A stretch of 62,624 bases of DNA, filler included, from Globobulimina sp. (GCA_003354225.1; 19 parts of 19 records of this genome joined end to end with filler, not necessarily neighbours in it), one strand, 5' to 3'; shown: positions 8,404 to 49,430, numbered from the whole stretch's first letter. Numbers and translations: made by a program. The notes: generated from the sequence alone by a model not told the origin.

Positions 8404-8596
8404 TAAATCAATTGCAACAAAGACATTAATTATTGTGCATGATTGTGTTTGTAATTATTAATAATAATATTTATCCTTGCAACCATCACACAATTAATCA
8501 TAACTCCGGTCAGGCTTTAAAGGTCGACCTAGGTCGTTAATTGTAATAAAAACTTGTTTTTGCAATAACATCAAATTTTGAAGATTCATGGGATAA

Positions 8597-9253: not shown

Positions 9254-9915
9254 TCAAAATTAACTTAGCTTTTGGAGTTGATCGCTCACCACAATAAATT
9301 AGCTCAATAGGTTATCGATAAAACTGGGAGTTTGTTTCAGCATCACCTGCACATCCAAAAACAAAATAAACATTGAGCGATGCAACAAACAATTAGACAA
9401 AAGTGCAACAATTATACATTTGAATCAATGACATCAAGTTCATGGGATAAAAACTTTGTTCGTCATTGTTCGTCATTTTTATTCTTCGACATGTTTGCTT
9501 TCACCGTTATAACCAATGATTTGTATTTAAATTGCTGCGTTGTTATCATCTTTTTTATTCGCTATTTTTCTTGTTTATTATAACATGACTTCATGATACC
9601 ATTTGAATTCACCACGGCTTCCATTACATCCTGGATTGCAATAATTTATTAATAATATATGCTGCAGTTTTGGTATCAGGACCTAAGTCGCTGTGGATTT
9701 TGCCTACAATTTCCCGTCCATGTTTTAGTTTCATCGCTGTGTTTTTGCATGATTTGGTGGGCTTTGCGAACATTTTCTTATCATTTTTATTATTCTTCCT
9801 GTGTGAATTGGTTCGNNNNNNNNNNNNNNNNNNNNNNNNNNNNNNNNNNNNNNNNNNNNTTAATTAATTAANNNNNNNNNNNNNNNNNNNNNNNNNNNNN
9901 NNNNNNNNNNNNNNN

Positions 9916-11478
9916 ATGAATGCCTCTGGCAATGCCCCATGGCCGTGTAATATTTTGTGGTATTTTGTCATTAGATATGACATATTGTCTGACCAGTAAT
10001 GCAAACACAGAATACATGAGTTGCATCGCAAGATGTTTCCCAAGACAGCTGTTTCCGCAGTATCCAAATATTAGCAATGATCGCATTTTGCGTATTTTGC
10101 TAAATTTATGATTAGAATCCAACCACCGATTGATATTAAATCTTCGTCCGTTTTTTTGTTGATGATGAATGGACAAATGGTTAATAACCACAGTCGATCC
10201 TTTGTAAATAGTATATCCGTCAATCTCCACATTGTCCACACATTTATGCGGTAAGCCCAATGGTAATATGACACCAAACCGTAATATTTCATGCACAAAA
10301 GCTCGCAAAAAATGCAACTCATTTTCCAACAATGCTGGTTTATACTCCTCAAATTTTCGCAATTCTCTATAGATTTTTGCTTGAATTTTCGGATATTTGC
10401 ACAACATTATCAGCCCAAATTCGATTTGTTTCGCTGTGGTTTCGACGCCGGCACCCAACAAAGCATACACATCACCGGTTATTTGTTCTACGTTCATATC
10501 ATTGAGAAATATTTTGTTGACCATCACAGACTTATTTTTATTCAATTTGTTCCATTCACATTTCCATTTGCAAATATTATTATGTTTGTTGCGTTGGGTT
10601 TGAATGTTTATTATATCGTGCTTTGCTAAGTATATTTTCAAATTGGTGATTAATTCGCGATGCACCCTTTCAATACCAAACATTTTCTCAAATATAATGT
10701 GTGGAATCTTGATATTAATCAACGTTTCGTAGGCAACATAGGTGCTGAATGCTGCTAATTTCTGTTTAGATAAAGACATATAATTTGCATAAAAACTATT
10801 ATCCATTGTTTGAATGTCATCCAACTGGTTACCAAAAATCGCAGTAAATATTGAATAAAATGAAAGGAAATGGCAATAATCGGAAATGTAGATTTTGCCC
10901 TTTGAATTGGTTGAATTTGCTATTGCTTTGTTAATATAATTTGGGTATAAATCCTTTTCAAACAATTGTTTTGTTGTTAGATAAGCAAACGAAGAACTTG
11001 TGATTACACTGAATGTCGACGCAAGAAATTTCCGCTGATGTAGCCACTTCTTGCCGTTAATCATTAGAAAAGAAGATAATTGAAATTCGTTTTCATTTAA
11101 ATGCCGCATCATTCCAATTTGGGGCGTTTTTAGTAATTTTTTGGCGGTTTTGTTATCGTTTACAAAAATTATGTTTTGAAATCCTAAGGGAACAGTGGTC
11201 AATGCTAATTTTCCATCATTACAAACGATGGATGATGAGAATTTGTGTGGGTCGGCAATGAATGAGGGGATGCAGCCTAATAATGGAAGACCTAAAGAAA
11301 CATATGGTGGGTATCGATAATATTTGTAATAGCACATCCAATATATATTTCGTAGCGCGTATAATCCAAACGCAAGACCAAAACGAATCACATATTTTCG
11401 AATTGTTGGATGTTCTTCTTTTGTTTTCTTAAACCATTCGAGTATTTTCGGTGTTATTATCCAGAAACAATGCAACAT
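9916..11478 (-). CDS. Cytochrome P450, 3' end at contig edge
   Basis: N-terminal anchor followed by PP..LPLLG, I-helix LLGAGVETT, K-helix EILR, PLGLPH, heme loop FGYCGNSCLG. Confidence 0.92.
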
Positions 11479-42964: not shown

Positions 42965-43827
42965 AAAGGAACGGTTTCAGAGGCAAAAACTTCGATTCTA
43001 GAGAAAAAACTTCGATTTCAGAAGACCAAATGCCCTAACATTTGTCAAGAGAAAGGATTTGCTTAAATACGGGATAGGTAGGGTGGTGGCCGTTGTTGGC
43101 GGTGCCTAACAGTATTCCGCTGATAAAAAGTGGGGCAAAACATGGGATTTTAGGGAAAAAAGGTTACTCATGTAGAAATAAAGTGTGTGTTTTATATACG
43201 AATGATTCCTTTTTACGATTTTTCTCTAAATCCTTCACGTAGGGTATTTTGTATTTCTGGTTTAATTCGAGGAAGCAAAAGGGATTGTTAGGCACTTTCC
43301 TAACATTTTTTGTTTTAACGTAACTGCATAATATCTCACATTAAATCTGGTTGTTAGGCATGCCGTGCAGGCATTGTCGATTTGGTCCTCAAAAGCGTTG
43401 TCTTTCTCGATAAAATCGAAGTTTTTTCTCTGGAATCGTGCACTTTCACTTTGAAACCGTGCTCTTTGTTGTTAGGCATTTTGCCTTTTGCTCCCTTTGC
43501 TCCATCAAATTCCTAACAAAAACCCCTTAAAATGGAGTAAAATTTCACTTTTTCCTAACAGCGATGCAGTAGCGACGTTGTTAGGCACTTTTTGACACTT
43601 TTAGGGCAAAACCGTTCACTTTTTTTAGGTCGACGGCGAAAACGTCCTCCATTTGACGGTTAGAACGCTCTTATACCACTTATTTGTGTTAGGTTTTATA
43701 CCTGTTTTTGCAGAGTAAAAACGGACGAGTAAATCCTCCATTTAATTGTTAGCGATCTCTAACCAACGAAAGATTCGCTGACCCTCCTACAGGTTAGGTT
43801 TGACGTGTTTTCAGAAAAACCTAACCT
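42965..43827. repeat. Non-coding region with CCTAACA/TGTTAGG heptamers and a long inverted repeat
   Basis: Ten exact heptamers at 43034, 43105, 43286, 43299, 43352, 43470, 43512, 43554, 43579 and 43687. 42993-43018 pairs with 43413-43438 (25/26). Confidence 0.85.
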
Positions 43828-43881: not shown

Positions 43882-44109
43882 TTACCTGTTTTCGCAGAAT
43901 ATTGACCCGAAATCGTCGAGGTCGAGGCCGACGACGACGTCAACGGCATATTCAGTACCAGAACAATTGAATATGTGACTTGCATACTGCAAACTAGGTC
44001 GACCTAGACTTGCATTTGCAGCTTTAATACTCTCGGCAGTGGAGAACGCACCTGCCAGTACCCAACCGACGCAGAATAGCGCCATACAGATCAGTAACTT
44101 CGCACTCAT
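43882..44109 (-). CDS. Hypothetical protein with hydrophobic N-terminus
   Basis: 75 aa; ATGA overlap with the upstream gene's stop. Confidence 0.55.
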   Translation of the reverse strand: MSAKLLICMALFCVGWVLAGAFSTAESIKAANASLGRPSLQYASHIFNCSGTEYAVDVVVGLDLDDFGSIFCENR

Positions 44110-44423
44110 AGTTGAACCCCCATTTGTTGTAGATCGTAAGCTAGGGCGCTACTGATACTCACAGAAACAGTATTTGGTATAGCCCCAATAAGTTTGTCTA
44201 ACTTCTTCCAGCCAGAAACAGAAACACCCCATTCATGACGCAGTCTAGAATCATGGATAGTTTGTTCCGCTTCCTTCTCATCATATAAATCACCACAACC
44301 GCAACTGGCTGCAATGTGACAAGCTTCAGAAAATAAATGATTTCTTACATTTAGTAGCTCAGCAGTAAATGTTGCCGTGTCGATAATCATTCTGTCGTCT
44401 TGTTGAATTGTTTCCATATTCAT
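44106..44423 (-). CDS. Hypothetical phage-like protein (105 aa)
   Basis: TAAGGAG six nt upstream of the ATG. Confidence 0.75.
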   Translation of the reverse strand: MNMETIQQDDRMIIDTATFTAELLNVRNHLFSEACHIAASCGCGDLYDEKEAEQTIHDSRLRHEWGVSVSGWKKLDKLIGAIPNTVSVSISSALAYDLQQMGVQL

Positions 44424-44468
44424 TTTTAGCTCCTTATTTCTAGGTCGACCTAGACTTGGCCGTTGGTC

Positions 44469-44651
44469 TCAGTTTGTCGTCGTTGTCATTCTTAAAAGCA
44501 CCATATTGGTACCCTTAACAACGACAACGACGAGGGCGACGGTGAGGGCGAGGACTACGGCATAATCCCGATTAACGGTGCATAGCGATGCACACAACCT
44601 CATTGTCGCTTTGTTGTCGTCGTTGTTCTTACATAATTGTGTAGGCGCCAT
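44469..44651 (-). CDS. Possible small membrane protein (60 aa)
   Basis: AGGTAGG upstream and one hydrophobic stretch; weak support. Confidence 0.3.
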   Translation of the reverse strand: MAPTQLCKNNDDNKATMRLCASLCTVNRDYAVVLALTVALVVVVVKGTNMVLLRMTTTTN

Positions 44652-45004
44652 CTACCTACCTGTTTAGGAAACTGTCCCGTCATAGTCTACTATAGACTGG
44701 GGATGTGACTCAGAGCCGATTATGCTATAGGTCGCAGGCTATGCGTTTACTGGTTTATCCTAAACAGACGACAGAGTAAGAGCTGTCTTTCACCATACTG
44801 GAGATCTCGGTACCAAGCGGTAATCCGGATTCGCAGTCCTATAGTTTGCCAAGTGCATATTTTTGTCCTGAGGCTGTGGGCGGACACGGAATCTTACATA
44901 GTCATTCTCCTGGTTAATTTCATAATTGTATTTGTGTTCTGAGATATAGGTCGACCTAGATGGTTGGGCATATTCTAGGTCGACCTATATCGCATAACGG
45001 GTAG

Positions 45005-45034
45005 CCCTCACTCTGTACCGTTACAGAGTGAGGG
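45005..45034 (-). terminator. 13-bp perfect stem-loop just downstream of 45042-45758
   Basis: CCCTCACTCTGTA-ccgt-TACAGAGTGAGGG, 7 nt after the stop. There is no U-tract, so it may be a stabiliser or processing hairpin. Confidence 0.5.
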
Positions 45035-45041
45035 GAGAGAT

Positions 45042-45758
45042 CTACCCTACCATTTGGAGGAGTTGCTTTCGTGTGGTTGCAGAGTCACGAATAGCGGTGG
45101 CTAGTTTCATGTACTGAGCGACTGTTGCACTTGCTTCGTGTTGAAGACGTTGGTTCTCTTCCTGAAGCTTTTTGAGTTGAGTTTCTAGGTCGACCTGTTT
45201 CTCTTCGTGCTTCTTATTAATACCCTTGAGCTGTTCCCTTGCGTCGCTGAGGGCGTCGCTGAGGGAAGCGACCGAGCTTTCCGCTTGTTTTCGTGCTGTG
45301 CCTTCCTTCTCAGCCTTGATAGAGTTTTGTTCTGCGTCGAGTAGTAATTGTTCTTGGTGTGCCTTCTCTGCGTCGGCCTTGGCCTTGGCCTTGGCTTGGT
45401 CGGCTTCTGATACTACTTTATAGACCTTGCCTTTATTGTTAGTAGATTCGTCCGCTAGCAAGGTGTGCAGTGATACATTGTTACCCTTGATTACTAGGGC
45501 GTGGCCTTTGAATATGTTGGCTGTCCACCGTTGGCAAGAGACCTTGAGTGTTTGTTTTGCTTGGTCGTTCTTGAATGTGGAGGTACCGATTAACACTGTC
45601 ACTTCTCTTTCAAGGTTGGCTAGTCCAATGGCTTGGAAGGCTTGCGCTCGTTCCTTAGCTATGGTGGCTTGCGTGGCTTCGGTTTGGTTGTAGGTCTTGA
45701 TAAAGTTTACAGTAGCTTGGCTCAGTTGGTTTGTGTTGTTAGTTATTGTTGCGCTCAT
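45042..45758 (-). CDS. Hypothetical Ala/Lys/Glu-rich coiled-coil protein (238 aa)
   Basis: AAAGGAG eight nt upstream of the ATG; heptad-rich C-terminal half. Confidence 0.85.
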   Translation of the reverse strand: MSATITNNTNQLSQATVNFIKTYNQTEATQATIAKERAQAFQAIGLANLEREVTVLIGTSTFKNDQAKQTLKVSCQRWTANIFKGHALVIKGNNVSLHTLLADESTNNKGKVYKVVSEADQAKAKAKADAEKAHQEQLLLDAEQNSIKAEKEGTARKQAESSVASLSDALSDAREQLKGINKKHEEKQVDLETQLKKLQEENQRLQHEASATVAQYMKLATAIRDSATTRKQLLQMVG

Positions 45759-45832
45759 GGTCTTTGCTCCTTTGTGGTTTGTTTTCTAGGTCGACCTATC
45801 GTGGTCGGCTACTTGGTGGACGTGGTTGTCCC

Positions 45833-45913
45833 TTAGAAATGTCTGTTTGTTTTACCTACGTAGTAAAGGTAGGCTTCTATCGCTAGGGTTATTGTTAATG
45901 TTATTGGTTCCAT
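45833..45913 (-). CDS. Small 26-aa ORF MEPITLTITLAIEAYLYYVGKTNRHF
   Basis: Own translation; strong AAGGAAGGTGA ribosome-binding site directly upstream. Confidence 0.5.
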   Translation of the reverse strand: MEPITLTITLAIEAYLYYVGKTNRHF

Positions 45914-46052
45914 GGCTCACCTTCCTTTGTTTTCTCAGCTTTACCGCTGATTTTTCGTTTAATTTCTAGGTCGACCTAGGCCACCCTATCCGATTTTTCT
46001 GGGAAGAAACTTTTTTTCCCGTGGCTGTACCCCACCACAGATGTCGACACTG

Positions 46053-46131
46053 TTTTTAGCGAAAAACCCTTTTTGATAATCACAACAACCTATTTTTAGC
46101 GAAAAACCCTTTTTGATAATTACAACAAACC
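46053..46131. repeat. 40-bp tandem repeat, two copies running into the contig end
   Basis: TTTTTAGCGAAAAACCCTTTTTGATAAT(C/T)ACAACAA at 46053 and 46093. Confidence 0.9.
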
Positions 46132-46231: not shown

Positions 46232-49200
46232 TTCTTCGATCGCCCGCTCTTGTATACAATGAGAGGGTATGAGGAGGCTCAGCAGGCGTCGGAGACCGAA
46301 CCTGCTGTTGAGGCGACGGAAGAGAAGACATCGTATGAGACGCAGACGTAAACCAAGGCGAAGGCGGCGAAAACGCACTGGGAGAGCTTTGGTGAAAACG
46401 ATATTAGGTCCTAATTTAGGTATATTTGTATACATAAAAACTATGAAAACGCACAAAAACACATTTTATAGGCAAGTATGGGCATAGATTGGGTCGAAAG
46501 AGACGAAAAAGACGCAGACGCAGACCCAGAGGCAAACGGAGAAGACGAAAGAAACATAGACGTCGACGTAAACGTAGACGTAAAAAACGTATCCGCAGTT
46601 TCGGTGCGCAAATGGATGAAAATAACATGGAAAATGAGTATGAATATTATTACGAAGATGATATGATCAATGCATTTGGAGCCGAGGCCATGTCCTCCAC
46701 CTTAAATCTAATGGATTTGGGCGAATATGATGGTTCCGATGAGCGGCAATTACGAAAATGTAAAACGTTTTCCATGACGGAAACCTGTGTGACTTTGGAC
46801 GCAAAGCGTGGCGATGTCCAATTAGAAGTATCTGTGGGTTCACTAAAGGCCAAAGAAGGGTATGCTGCACATGCATGGCAGCAAGAAAACGGCGAAAACG
46901 AATATTATGAGTACACCGATGAAGATGTAGAAGATGAATGGTTTGACGAAACTGAGCAGACCGCGTGGATGGTGAGTGATGTTGCCGCAGACGAAGAATA
47001 TGACGATCTCTGGAATGATGATACTAACTGGGAGCAAATTGATGAGATACAAACCTTATCCGGTAACAGATTACAACGTAAATGTCTACATCTGTGGGGA
47101 CAACGATTATGTTTATGCCAATTTTTAGCGTTTTTGGATAATCGCAAGTTTAAATGCCAACCCAAAGGGCTGTTTTATAATCCATTAGGTCCCGGTCCTG
47201 GCACTGGTGGCGGTGCAATGACTCAATCACAAATGAAAGAGATACAAAGTGTACAAAGCATAAAAAGTATACCCAAAATACCCAAAATAAGCAAAATACA
47301 TAAGAAGAGTACCGGTGTTGGTCCGAGCGAGAAAAGCATGAAAAAAGAGATTAAGAAAGTGGAAAAAGTGAAGGCAGTCAAGCCCCAAATGTCCAAGAAT
47401 AAGTTAAAAAAAGTGGTGAATAAAGCGCTGAAAAAAGCGGTAGAAAAGGCTGGGAAGAAGGAGAAAGCCGCGATTTTGGCGAAAAAGAAACGCGGATTGT
47501 TGATTCCGAAACATTTGCCGTATAGATTTGAAGGGATCAAGTTGCCGAAAACACCGCCGAAGTGGTTGCCTCATTGGATGTGGCACGAGTTTACTGTACA
47601 AAATGAACAACACAAACAAGAGAAGAAGACGCATACAGCGATAAAGAAGAAATTGAAAGAAGGGATTAAGAAACAACGGGCAAAGGAACAGAAACAGATA
47701 AAGAAGGAAGAAAAAGTGCTGTTGCAAGCGCGAAAACAAGCGGAGAAACAGATTAAGAAAGAGATTGCAAAGGAGATCAAATCGGATGAGGTGAAGGCTG
47801 CGGTGGAGACTCAGAAGAAGGCGGTCAAAGTGGCGAAGAAAGCAGTGAAGAAAGCAAAGGTTACCGAGAAGGAAAAGGAAAAGTTGAAGAAAGCCACTGT
47901 GAAGGTGATAAAAAAGAAAGTTGCGGCGGATATCAAAGCGGCGGTTTACAAGAAGTTATCTCGGAAGAAAGGAGGGCGGAAGTTATCTACGCGCGAAAAG
48001 GAGAAGATTAAGAAAAAAGCGATTAGTGATATTAAGAAAACAGTGGATAAACATGTTACTGCTAAATCTAAGAAATCTGCCGCTATGGATGCATATTATG
48101 ACTTTGATGATGAATATTACGACGATTACGATGAATACTATGATGATATGGATTATTACGATGAATATTATGATGATGAAGGTGAAATGTATGATGATTA
48201 TGATTATGAATCGTATGATTTGGATGATGATTTTTACGATGAATATGACGATTTGGATTATGATAGTATTCAAGATGCAATATCTGAGGACGAGGACGCG
48301 GAGGAAGAGATTGATGAGGAATATGAAGATGCATTGGACGAATTATATTACGATGTATCTAATTATTATGATGACTATGATGGTATGTATTATTACGAAG
48401 ATGTCTCCGATAACGAAGAATATAGCATCGCAGAGAAAGCGCACTGGCACGATGACCGAGATGACAACGATTGGGTCGTCAGTTCGCTATCCACCTCGGA
48501 TTTAGATAACGTATGGGAAGACCCGTCAGAATGGGAATTGGTGGATAAAGTAAAGACCGCTTCTGGTCGCATGGTACAACGCAAATGTTTACATATGTGG
48601 CAACATCGATTATGTCTATGCCAATTTTTAGAATGGATCGACGACGCCAAATATAAATGTTATCCACGAGGACAAGCCATGCCTATCATGAAGAAAACAC
48701 CTAAACTCGGTGCAGCCGCTCCCTCTGCCCCCAAAGTCGTCAAGAAATTCAAGAAAATCGTCAAGAAACTGCGAGTGGCCCAGAAACCGGGCGTAGCACA
48801 AAAACCATTGTTAGCCAAACTATCCGGCGACATTAAAAAATTAGAAACCATCGAACAGAAAAGAGCTGCAGAAACCGGCCAAAGCAATGGCAAAACCAAA
48901 TCATTATTGAAGAAATTAGCCATCAAATTAGGGAAAAAGGCACAACAACAACAGCCAGTACGCCCTGGTAAAGCCAGGAGAGCCTATCCACCCAAGCAAT
49001 TAATGAAGAAAACCATCCAAGCCGGCAATGGCGTCCGTGCCATGGCAGAAATGGAAGATATGGCGAACCCGCCATTGCCCGGCGATTATGCTGTACCTCA
49101 CAACACCGCCGCCTCCCAGGCCCACAACGCTCAGTTGAGTCATATTGAAGCATTATTGGCCCATTTATTAGCCGCCAAAACGGCAAAAGGCGGTGGAAAA

Positions 49201-49430
49201 CCAGCTGCATTGGCACATTATTCACCGTCTGAATCGGAGAGTGCTGAGCATGGTTATACCACACCGGATGAAGTTCGGCGCCGATACCGCCATTCGGAGC
49301 GGTTGTGGCGCAAACGACAACGGGGTGAGGGTCCCGGTGGCAAAGTGGGGAAGAAGCATGGCTTAGGCCGTGCGTTAGGTGGCATGTTTAAGGACGTCAA
49401 TTACCACCCCGATCGACTGTTAAACTCTCA
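46232..49430 (+). CDS. Charge-block low-complexity protein with a duplicated Cys module, both ends truncated
   Basis: Poly-Arg, D/E/Y-rich and Lys-rich blocks, with two copies of QRKCLH.W..RLCLCQFL...D..K.KC.P.G. Probable intron ~46420-46487. Confidence 0.75.

Follow-up and report, generated by a model that had tools for sequence, protein, structure and literature searches.

A repeated palindrome accompanies the small genes of a phage-like contig

Introduction

It is a known habit of phages to head their early genes with a repeated control word, and such words both show the timing of the first genes and can be reused as orthogonal genetic parts. The operators of lambda- and P22-type repressors are dyad sites, present as graded copies clustered at one or two promoters, and the promoters of phage single-subunit RNA polymerases and the hairpin promoters of the N4 virion polymerase are not perfect dyads. 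Here we describe what may be a new form of this habit, the palindrome AGGTCGACCT, which occurs seven times within 2 kb on a phage-like contig of 3.2 kb lying in a window of 62,624 nucleotides (the whole stretch of DNA that was analysed, one strand, filler included) from the Globobulimina sp. assembly GCA_003354225.1. It is unusual in being a perfect dyad that lacks a loop and bears a tail on one side only, and in standing before each unit of a block made up of orphan genes. By position, the closest known system is the promoter-early stem-loop (PeSL) cassettes of the T4-type phages RB49 and phi1 (Arbiol et al. 2010, PMC2839356), and by sequence form it is the repetitive extragenic palindromic (REP) sequences and their hairpin-forming doublets (REPINs) that go with REP-associated tyrosine transposases (RAYTs) (Bertels and Rainey 2011, PMC3116915; PMC3337134).

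As described there, PeSLs resemble our palindrome in being a repeated dyad motif placed between the stop codon and the Shine-Dalgarno sequence of small orphan genes in a plastic region of the phage, but they carry a consensus sigma-70 promoter and form a stable G/C terminator stem-loop, whereas the window copies lack a -35/-10 pair and the single ones are weak, loop-less 12-bp dyads. REP and REPIN sequences share with it the form of short, near-identical palindromes found singly and as hairpin-forming inverted doublets, and in the bacterial genome G002, described below, a RAYT-like gene is surrounded by a family of this kind with the very same 10-bp core. The window copies differ in lying on a phage fragment, seven in 2 kb, in being tied to gene starts and in having a variant at the homologous places of a distant relative. 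No RAYT is found among the five open reading frames (ORFs) of the 3.2-kb contig, and REPINs are described as chromosomal and vertically inherited. The window copies make up one doublet and five singlets; in G002 doublets prevail.

With lambda- or P22-type operators the window palindromes have in common two 6-bp half-sites, several copies in a control region and the tolerance of one imperfect half-site (in the second copy of a relative phage contig, L062). They differ in being near-identical, in standing at every gene head over 2 kb and in bearing a one-sided tail, and no repressor gene was found beside them on the contig. The T5-like terminal repeat, whose untranslated repeat regions are described as long composite units with DnaA boxes (bioRxiv 10.1101/866236), is a loose analogy for the setting only: our contig has one short dyad before each gene, and no sequence match was found in 50,697 phage records.

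Seven copies of one palindrome lie in a 2-kb block of small genes

The window (1-62624) joins 19 contigs of 3,198-3,205 bp each, in descending order of length, through spacers of the form N44-TTAATTAATTAA-N44, and anything that spans a joiner is meaningless. The motif-bearing contig occupies 42932-46131 (3200 bp, GC 0.434) and is bounded on both sides by such a spacer. The decamer AGGTCGACCT occurs eight times in the whole window, against 0.03 copies expected and with none of 100 shuffles reaching eight, and seven of these lie within 43996-45977 of this one contig, starting at 43996, 44442, 44948, 44977, 45187, 45788 and 45968. These copies are real, far beyond chance and oriented with the genes. 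The 12-mer TAGGTCGACCTA is exact in six of the seven (the copy at 45186 has G as its last letter). On the coding (minus) strand AGAAA follows four of them (44442, 45187, 45788 and 45968) and AGAAT follows the one at 44977, so that an AGAA(A/T) tail is found in five of the seven copies, always on one side, the gene side, and the opposite flank is variable. The unit is thus a 12-bp dyad, TAGGTC/GACCTA, extended on one side by a tail in the direction of the genes. Every copy is an exact dyad at the DNA level, free of asymmetry of the G-U type, and the copies are placed as follows.

45963..45978, minus strand: palindrome copy 1, TAGGTCGACCTAGAAA, 49 nucleotides (nt) before the ATG at 45913; L062 counterpart at 9782-9800
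45783..45798, minus strand: palindrome copy 2, TAGGTCGACCTAGAAA, 24 nt before the ATG at 45758; L062 counterpart at 9920-9938
45182..45197, minus strand: palindrome copy 3, CAGGTCGACCTAGAAA, within the gene for a protein of 238 amino acids (aa), where it codes for KQVDLET
44936..44998, inverted repeat: doublet of two copies (44947-44958 and 44976-44987) in mirror orientation
44437..44454, minus strand: palindrome copy 6, TCTAGGTCGACCTAGAAA, a 16-bp perfect dyad, 13 nt before the ATG at 44423
43994-44007: palindrome copy 7, CTAGGTCGACCTAG, within the 75-aa ORF

Each of the three intergenic gaps before genes led by a Shine-Dalgarno sequence contains one palindrome copy, 49, 24 and 13 nt ahead of the start codons at 45913, 45758 and 44423, with an AGGAG-type ribosome site in between; copy 6 is separated from its ribosome site (AAGGAG) by a single T. 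The sole gapless gene junction, at which the 105-aa and 75-aa ORFs overlap, has no copy. Five of the seven copies lie outside ORFs and two inside (SLGRPSL in the 75-aa ORF, KQVDLET in the 238-aa gene). The arms of the doublet are perfect over 18 nt and 92% complementary over 25 nt, with a loop of 13 nt and a spacing of 29 bp between the copies.

A preliminary description of this DNA, made from the sequence alone, had reported the seven copies within 2 kb, the four with AGAAA, the three upstream of ribosome-binding sites, the two within coding sequence and the 18-bp inverted repeat around a 13-nt loop, and all of these were borne out. Its suggestion that the motif is kept even under coding constraint held in part: the copy in the 238-aa gene is not an insertion, there being no gap at that place in the family alignment, and its residues recur in a 74%-identical homologue, but 11 other aligned family members differ.

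Apart from the seven copies, two degenerate ones were found on the contig.

43621..43634: decayed copy, TAGGTCGACGG at 43626 (TTTTTTAGGTCGAC then GG), in the non-coding arm
44728: second decayed copy, TAGGTCGCAGG, on the same contig

The eighth exact AGGTCGACCT of the window, at 8521-8530 (AAGGTCGACCTAGGTCG), lies on an unrelated contig of low GC content and is probably there by chance.

The half-sites are kept at homologous places in a relative phage contig

A 49.5-kb IMG/VR contig (L062, genome G001) was reached through one member of the 238-aa protein family. It carries genes for terminase, a lambda-type portal, an S49 head protease and a 1,858-aa tape measure protein, together with an SbcCD-like nuclease, two HNH nucleases, an ATP-dependent ligase, thymidylate synthase, MazG and an endolysin, a gene content that marks it as a large siphophage, estimated to be 42% complete. 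The order at its end matches that on the minus strand of our contig: tandem repeats, palindrome, micro-peptide gene, palindrome and a homologue of the 238-aa protein (35% identical). The L062 tandem repeats (2 x 45 bp, 9636-9719) can be aligned with those of the window (2 x 40 bp; GATTATCAAAAA...GTTTTTC), and between the tandem repeats and a ...GGCC flank the two contigs have the block TGTGGTGGGG in common. In L062 the shared ...GGCC flank is directly followed by ATAGGTCACTGACCTATTT, a ribosome site and the gene for a hydrophobic peptide of 25 aa, and after this gene come ATAGTTCACTGACCTATTT, a ribosome site, the 238-aa homologue, a hairpin terminator and 12-bp tandem repeats, at least eight copies of which (10982-11080) end the contig just past the shared genes. 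Global alignment of the 25-aa peptide with the 26-aa micro-peptide of the window gave a score of 36, which none of 2000 shuffles reached.

By this synteny with a tailed-phage contig, our contig is a phage-type fragment, as the preliminary description had proposed; its genes are small, all on the minus strand and provided with AGGAG-type ribosome sites. The phage lineage is undescribed and has no cultured member. The contig, the 238-aa protein and its family members P0009 and P0007 were compared with 50,697 phage records by blastn and tblastn, and nothing matched. Among the papers listed by a full-text literature search for AGGTCGACCT, the contexts are cloning primers, to judge by the titles, and on that search alone there is no description of the word as a phage signal.

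The palindrome of L062, TAGGTC-ACT-GACCTA, keeps the half-sites TAGGTC and GACCTA, adds 3 nt on the dyad axis and has a T-rich tail, and it was not found elsewhere in the 49.5 kb. The palindromes before the two genes predate the split between the phage lineages of our contig and of L062, whose shared protein is only 35% identical. The presence of a symmetric variant at two homologous places argues for a site that is kept by selection and read symmetrically, and to this extent the dedicated DNA-site system of the preliminary description holds, with the half-sites retained at two homologous intergenic places. Since the palindrome changes symmetrically between relatives, a co-evolving, findable binder is to be expected.

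Because the sites head each unit and their tails are oriented, we favour control of transcription of the block. The reading that we prefer, tentatively and at somewhat less than an even chance, is that the palindrome is bound as duplex DNA by a dimeric factor, which would thereby control every transcription unit in the terminal small-gene block of the phage. The contig would be a piece of this block, probably an early one, from an uncultured tailed phage, and a dimeric protein would recognise TAGGTC/GACCTA on double-stranded DNA. Each transcription unit would have such a site at its head, shortly before the ribosome-binding site, and protein binding would switch the whole block together, by repression or by activation. 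The asymmetric A-rich tail would give the site a direction, as an initiation or -10-like region; transcription may either start within the tail, as at the promoter of a dedicated polymerase or factor, or the site may be an operator or roadblock inside a longer transcript. Protein binding, the dimer, the transcriptional effect and the early block are thus what we infer.

Dyad symmetry and conserved half-sites are present, as for the operator of a dimeric regulator, and the same half-sites recur at another spacing in L062. Several observations speak against this reading, however. Two copies lie in ORFs and one is reversed in the doublet, neither of which a simple operator needs, and the near-perfect identity of the copies exceeds that of usual operators. 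The same core is a transposase-linked repeat in G002. No regulator gene is in view on the contig, where none of the five ORFs matched a helix-turn-helix (HTH), ribbon-helix-helix (RHH), ParB or other DNA-binding family. By eye, no -35/-10 pair stands at constant geometry beside the copies, and at 44442 the 13 nt between the end of the tail and the ATG leave too little room for a -10 region. Furthermore, the comparison extends to only one relative with DNA context, L062. Among the candidates put forward in the preliminary description, an operator or promoter element is still the best, whereas a parS-like site, a restriction decoy and a recombination point have gained no specific support.

The last of these would make the palindromes joints between small gene cassettes, at which modules are shuffled in the manner of PeSLs. 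The copies do bracket small orphan genes, identical repeats of 12-20 bp in both orientations could support exchange, and PeSLs are reported to act in this way in RB49 and phi1 (PMC2839356). However, 12-20 bp is short for homologous exchange, and in the comparison with the single relative L062 no gain, loss or inversion of a cassette was seen at a palindrome, and we regard this explanation as very unlikely.

The copies fit a proposed duplex site better than a folded structure or a host promoter

Folded as single-stranded DNA, the doublet (44936-44998) reaches -19.8 kcal/mol (z -9.2) and is the only stable palindrome structure on the contig, whereas the single copies are weak hairpins of -1.6 to -3.4 kcal/mol with stems of 3-6 bp and loops of 4 nt. 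Two of the three window copies tested fold no better than their shuffles (34 and 55 of 200 equal them), and the third, at 44442, is weak but above its shuffles (z -3.1, 4 of 200). On the gene strand, a T run follows none of the single copies. The first L062 copy forms a 7-bp stem with a 3-nt loop, and the second forms no stable stem: its mismatch abolishes the hairpin yet leaves one half-site perfect. We therefore favour a site that is read on duplex DNA over a folded structure, because the single copies make poor hairpins, because the change in the second L062 copy breaks the stem and spares one half-site, and because all copies are exact dyads without G-U-type asymmetry.

The same results bear on the possibility that the palindrome acts at the RNA level, where a small stem-loop in the 5' leader or between cistrons would determine how the mRNA of the next gene is stabilised, processed or translated. 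Such a role would suit copies that lie within likely transcripts, 13-49 nt before start codons and beside ribosome sites, and it would suit the doublet, a strong hairpin after a gene end. It sits poorly with the very weak hairpins of the single copies, with perfect DNA dyads throughout that show no G-U-type asymmetry, with the stem of the second L062 copy, broken by a non-pairing change, and with the lack of any Rfam match, and we consider it quite improbable.

A scan for sigma-70-type promoters gave four promoter-like sites against 3.9 expected, only one of which touches a copy. With promoter-like sites at the expected number and no common geometry, a sigma-70 promoter was rejected. A different possibility is that an RNA polymerase or sigma-like factor specific to the phage uses the 16-mer as its promoter. 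Transcripts would then start at the G/A of the GAAA tail, and their leaders, 17, 28 and 53 nt long, would contain the ribosome site. Like the promoters of phage polymerases, the palindrome is a near-invariant word of 16-17 nt, oriented with the genes in five of seven copies and present also inside a gene, as is usual for such promoters. For the copy that lies 13 nt before the ATG at 44423, no promoter geometry is suitable except one with the start within the tail, and a host-type promoter was not found. The 7-bp stem and 3-nt loop of the L062 variant agree with the geometry of the hairpin promoters of the N4 virion polymerase, which have a stem of 5-7 bp and a loop of 3 nt.

The window copies, in contrast, lack the 3-nt loop and form only 3-6-bp stems with 4-nt loops, and the perfect dyad would be unneeded, known phage-polymerase promoters being asymmetric. 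Two copies, that at 43996 and one of the doublet, are not directed towards any gene. The 49.5 kb of the relative yielded no polymerase gene: a scan of 56 ORFs of the L062 contig (9+47) with PHROGs and Pfam revealed neither a polymerase nor a sigma gene, in a contig that covers only about 42% of its genome. We judge a phage-specific promoter unlikely on these grounds. Position by position, the likeness to known phage-polymerase promoters is poor, and it was not used as evidence.

The same core forms a transposase-linked repeat family in a very small bacterial genome

A scan for the 16-mer in one genome per species (185,579 species) gave 16 loci, and only one genome contained two. This genome, G002, is the metagenome-assembled genome behind the locus L074, 0.9 Mb in size and from an uncultured bacterium, and it has a cellular gene set (LigA, SecDF, PBP1, topoisomerase I, glycolytic enzymes and RecG). 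It contains 27 copies of AGGTCGACCT, against one of a control word, and their consensus reads TTCAAGGTCGACCTTGAA. The majority lie between genes, either in pairs with a distance of about 54 bp or in tighter doublets, some of them at 32-34 bp. The phage unit differs from the G002 consensus at one symmetric pair of flank positions only, and the phage TTCT flank stands on one side of 4 of the 27 copies.

Five AGGTCGACCT copies flank and lie inside a G002 gene of 192 aa, which has the HUH motif and the tyrosine region of Y1 transposases and passes Pfam Y1_Tnp; its only NCBIfam match, "REP-associated tyrosine transposase", has an E value of 1.3e-13 and 51 bits, below the 80-bit cut-off. A paralogue of this gene is flanked by and contains a second palindrome, AGTTCGAACT, which lies one symmetric position pair away from AGGTCGACCT and has 52 copies in G002 (control 4), mostly as doublets 32 bp apart. 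In ligA, five copies of the first family lie in frame, as doublets, and the LigA match covers 692 residues against 660 model positions. No copy of the first family is found in 33 of 40 relatives of G002, and we therefore take the family to be lineage-specific. Compared with the described systems, this is a textbook RAYT-REPIN arrangement, here in a very small genome. The G002 features lie in the following loci.

L100, 1-1100
L120, 1100-1800
L099, 1000-1340

One of the relatives of G002, G017, has two tight AGGTCGACCT pairs only 16 bp apart, on contigs C64 and C66, and these may be a third arrangement of the same core.

These data raise a serious alternative that the preliminary description had missed, namely that the phage palindromes are mobile repeats of the REP/REPIN type, spread by a Y1/HUH transposase of the host lineage, which colonised the intergenic DNA of the phage or were borrowed by it, any regulation being secondary. 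G002 has 27 copies of the identical core around a RAYT-like gene and a second family around the paralogue, and its first family is lineage-specific, as mobile repeats are. In-frame copies are tolerated in G002 ligA, as are two in the phage ORFs. The hairpin-forming doublet of the phage lies right after a gene end, with a spacing (29 bp) that compares with the 32-34 bp of some G002 doublets, and the GC contents are alike (0.43 versus about 0.40-0.42).

However, the palindrome at the two homologous places of L062 is a different one, for which the descent of a functional site is a simpler account than a series of independent insertions, and the 49.5 kb of L062 contain no Y1 transposase (Y1_Tnp), nor is a transposase found among the five ORFs of our contig. 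The densities are far apart (7 in 2 kb versus 27 in 900 kb), the copy in the 238-aa gene is not an insertion, and REPINs are described as chromosomal and vertically inherited. Apart from the motif the contig has no match to G002, and the AGTTCGAACT family is absent from it; with 1024 possible perfect palindromes of 10 bp, the common core could be a coincidence. We regard mobile repeats as a real but doubtful alternative.

A further reading, in which the phage and a host lineage with a reduced genome share one palindrome, seems to us on the whole improbable. The units of the phage early genes would then be of the REPIN type, with the same core as those spread by a RAYT in bacteria like G002; the host enzyme would have planted them, or the phage would have copied them so as to attract or escape a REP-binding protein of the host. 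If true, it would be the first case of a REP/REPIN family at work on a virus and would allow hosts to be assigned, by sequence only, to phages of uncultured bacteria with small genomes. The RAYT link, if real, would bring phages and bacteria with very small genomes into the biology of REPINs, besides giving a clue to the host; if it is a coincidence, the finding in G002 still stands, with two RAYT-REPIN pairs and in-frame copies in ligA and the transposase genes.

The contig is a low-level passenger in a eukaryote assembly

The palindrome-bearing contig is present in one of three public runs of one sample (X1), at a word depth of about 3-11; runs X2 and X3 have almost no words of it, by which its absence there is not proven, and no RNA run was listed as containing it. 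Because only X1 contains it, at low depth, we take it to be a low-level foreign passenger in a eukaryote assembly. The other contigs of the window have GC contents of 0.29-0.40, except that at 46232-49430 (0.435), and their long ORFs match eukaryotic families (RCC1, Serinc, cytochrome P450, exocyst/Vps51, PPR, SAM and ankyrin). These eukaryotic ORFs are long and intron-free at a GC content of about 0.3, which suggests a protist-like source. When large ORFs from the contig of like GC content (46232-49430) and from other contigs were compared with PHROGs, nothing matched, so that no further phage pieces were identified in the window.

Six of the seven palindrome copies were recovered, with one differing letter overall, in Logan contigs, a separate assembly of the X1 reads; the copy at 44442 falls in a gap between two of these contigs. 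The copies thus have read support, although X1 is possibly the source run of the window and the agreement is then not an independent sample. One of the Logan contigs opens with 21 letters of Illumina adapter fused to phage sequence at 43733. This remnant lies away from any motif and is absent from the window sequence, and the junction points either to repeated short fragments ending there or to duplicates.

A technical origin of the palindrome, as a linker, an adapter or a chimeric assembly, would find some support in the SalI site between CTAG ends in the core, which is linker-like, in the adapter remnant just described, and in the occurrence of the full 20-bp palindrome in two unrelated IMG/VR contigs, in one of them at a fold-back end. 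The copies stand at biologically sensible places, however, and the reading frames stay open; they recur in the separate assembly of the X1 reads (possibly the source run), and a variant occupies homologous places in an independent metagenome contig, L062. The motif is not adapter DNA and the remnant is not at the motif, and an artefact is hardly credible.

Genes and other elements of the contig

The remaining features of the contig are these.

46053..46128: two 40-bp tandem repeats at the contig end, which align with the 45-bp tandem repeat of L062
45833..45913, minus strand: micro-peptide gene, 26 aa, hydrophobic, with a Shine-Dalgarno site
45042..45758, minus strand: gene for the 238-aa protein, of a small family from metagenomes and phages only
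45005..45034, minus strand: hairpin with a 13-bp stem just past the stop codon of the 238-aa gene, -14.2 kcal/mol, z -5.5
44469..44651, minus strand: doubtful 60-aa ORF with a hydrophobic stretch
44106..44423, minus strand: 105-aa ORF, no relatives found
43882..44109, minus strand: 75-aa ORF with a hydrophobic N terminus, its start overlapping the 105-aa stop, which holds copy 7
43034..43693: non-coding arm with a second iterated word, TGTTAGG/CCTAACA, in 10 copies

None of the five ORFs (26, 238, 60, 105 and 75 aa) has a match in Pfam or PHROGs, and the 238-aa and 105-aa proteins have none in NCBIfam either; BLASTP with the micro-peptide gave no match. One homologue of the 238-aa product is 74% identical to it, and a search of 1.84 billion representatives revealed 15 relatives at E<=1e-3; to judge by this conservation it is a real protein. 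The relatives are encoded on metagenome contigs that reach 23 kb in length (1.4 kb for P0001, 8.4 kb for P0002, 9 kb for P0004, up to 18 kb for P0009 and 23 kb for P0007). The homologue search suggested in the preliminary description thus succeeded for this protein and not for the 105-aa one, which has no homologue among candidates of 57-184 aa, longer and shorter proteins not having been searched. A protein scan of genome contigs revealed no relative with DNA context, nor did scans of viral contigs with the 238-aa protein, A1 and P0004; those with P0009 and A3 led only to L062.

A structure model of the 238-aa protein (pLDDT, the predicted local distance difference test, 87) has a small alpha/beta N-terminal domain followed by a predicted single helix of about 105 residues; modelled alone, the N-terminal domain reaches a pLDDT of 34. 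No family or supported fold match was found for it with Pfam, PHROGs, NCBIfam, Foldseek and wider structure searches. A wide structure search returned coiled coils only, a profile search of the PDB only coiled-coil noise, and a structure search of the Atlas only unnamed viral clusters at 0.85. The protein was dropped as a candidate binder, since Foldseek rows for winged-helix proteins had E values of only 1.3-3.5. On re-check (VIA) those chains gave Z<=2.7, the best N-terminal row having Z 4.0 over 44 residues.

The hairpin at 45005..45034 is terminator-like and has no T run, whereas the L062 hairpin at the same place has one, and the doublet at 44936-44998 sits directly after it. In the stretch of about 480 nt that follows on the minus strand (44460-44935), no ORF, tRNA or Rfam match was found apart from the doubtful 60-aa ORF, and tRNA and Rfam searches of the whole contig likewise gave no match. 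The 75-aa and 60-aa ORFs have in common a 46-nt stretch (43908-43953 and 44522-44567) with 72% identity and a similar (E/D)YAV... hydrophobic segment, and they may be diverged duplicates.

In the non-coding arm, 10 of the 15 window copies of TGTTAGG/CCTAACA fall within about 660 bp (43034-43693), where about 5 are expected in the whole window, and some of them form small hairpins with one another, with a T run behind. A loose periodicity of 184 bp runs through the region (repeat families D7, D9 and D14), which could be an origin, iterons or a packaging or injection signal. At the other end, both the window contig and L062 break within tandem repeats.

Further occurrences of the palindromes

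A second contig with the 17-mer of L062, L067, proved to be unrelated and GC-rich and has one copy. Scanning metagenomes for the motif gave 59 loci, each with a single copy. Eighteen of the 59 (L003-L058) come from one assembly, JAAUYA01, and about 17-18 of the 19 loci aligned from JAAUYA01 and JAAUXW01 have long diverged flanks with further AGGTCA words; these were set aside as an unrelated interspersed repeat. Another locus, L001 (1945-2070), is the end of a 29.7-kb IMG/VR contig rated complete (G043), and it folds back: about 50 bases are reverse-complemented around the 20-bp palindrome TTTCTAGGTCGACCTAGAAA, the sole copy in that genome. A hairpin end, a replication intermediate and an amplification chimera are all conceivable here. 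In L002, a 2.4-kb contig from a neighbouring sample number, the TTTCTAGGTCGACCTAGAAA palindrome is extended to 22 bp.

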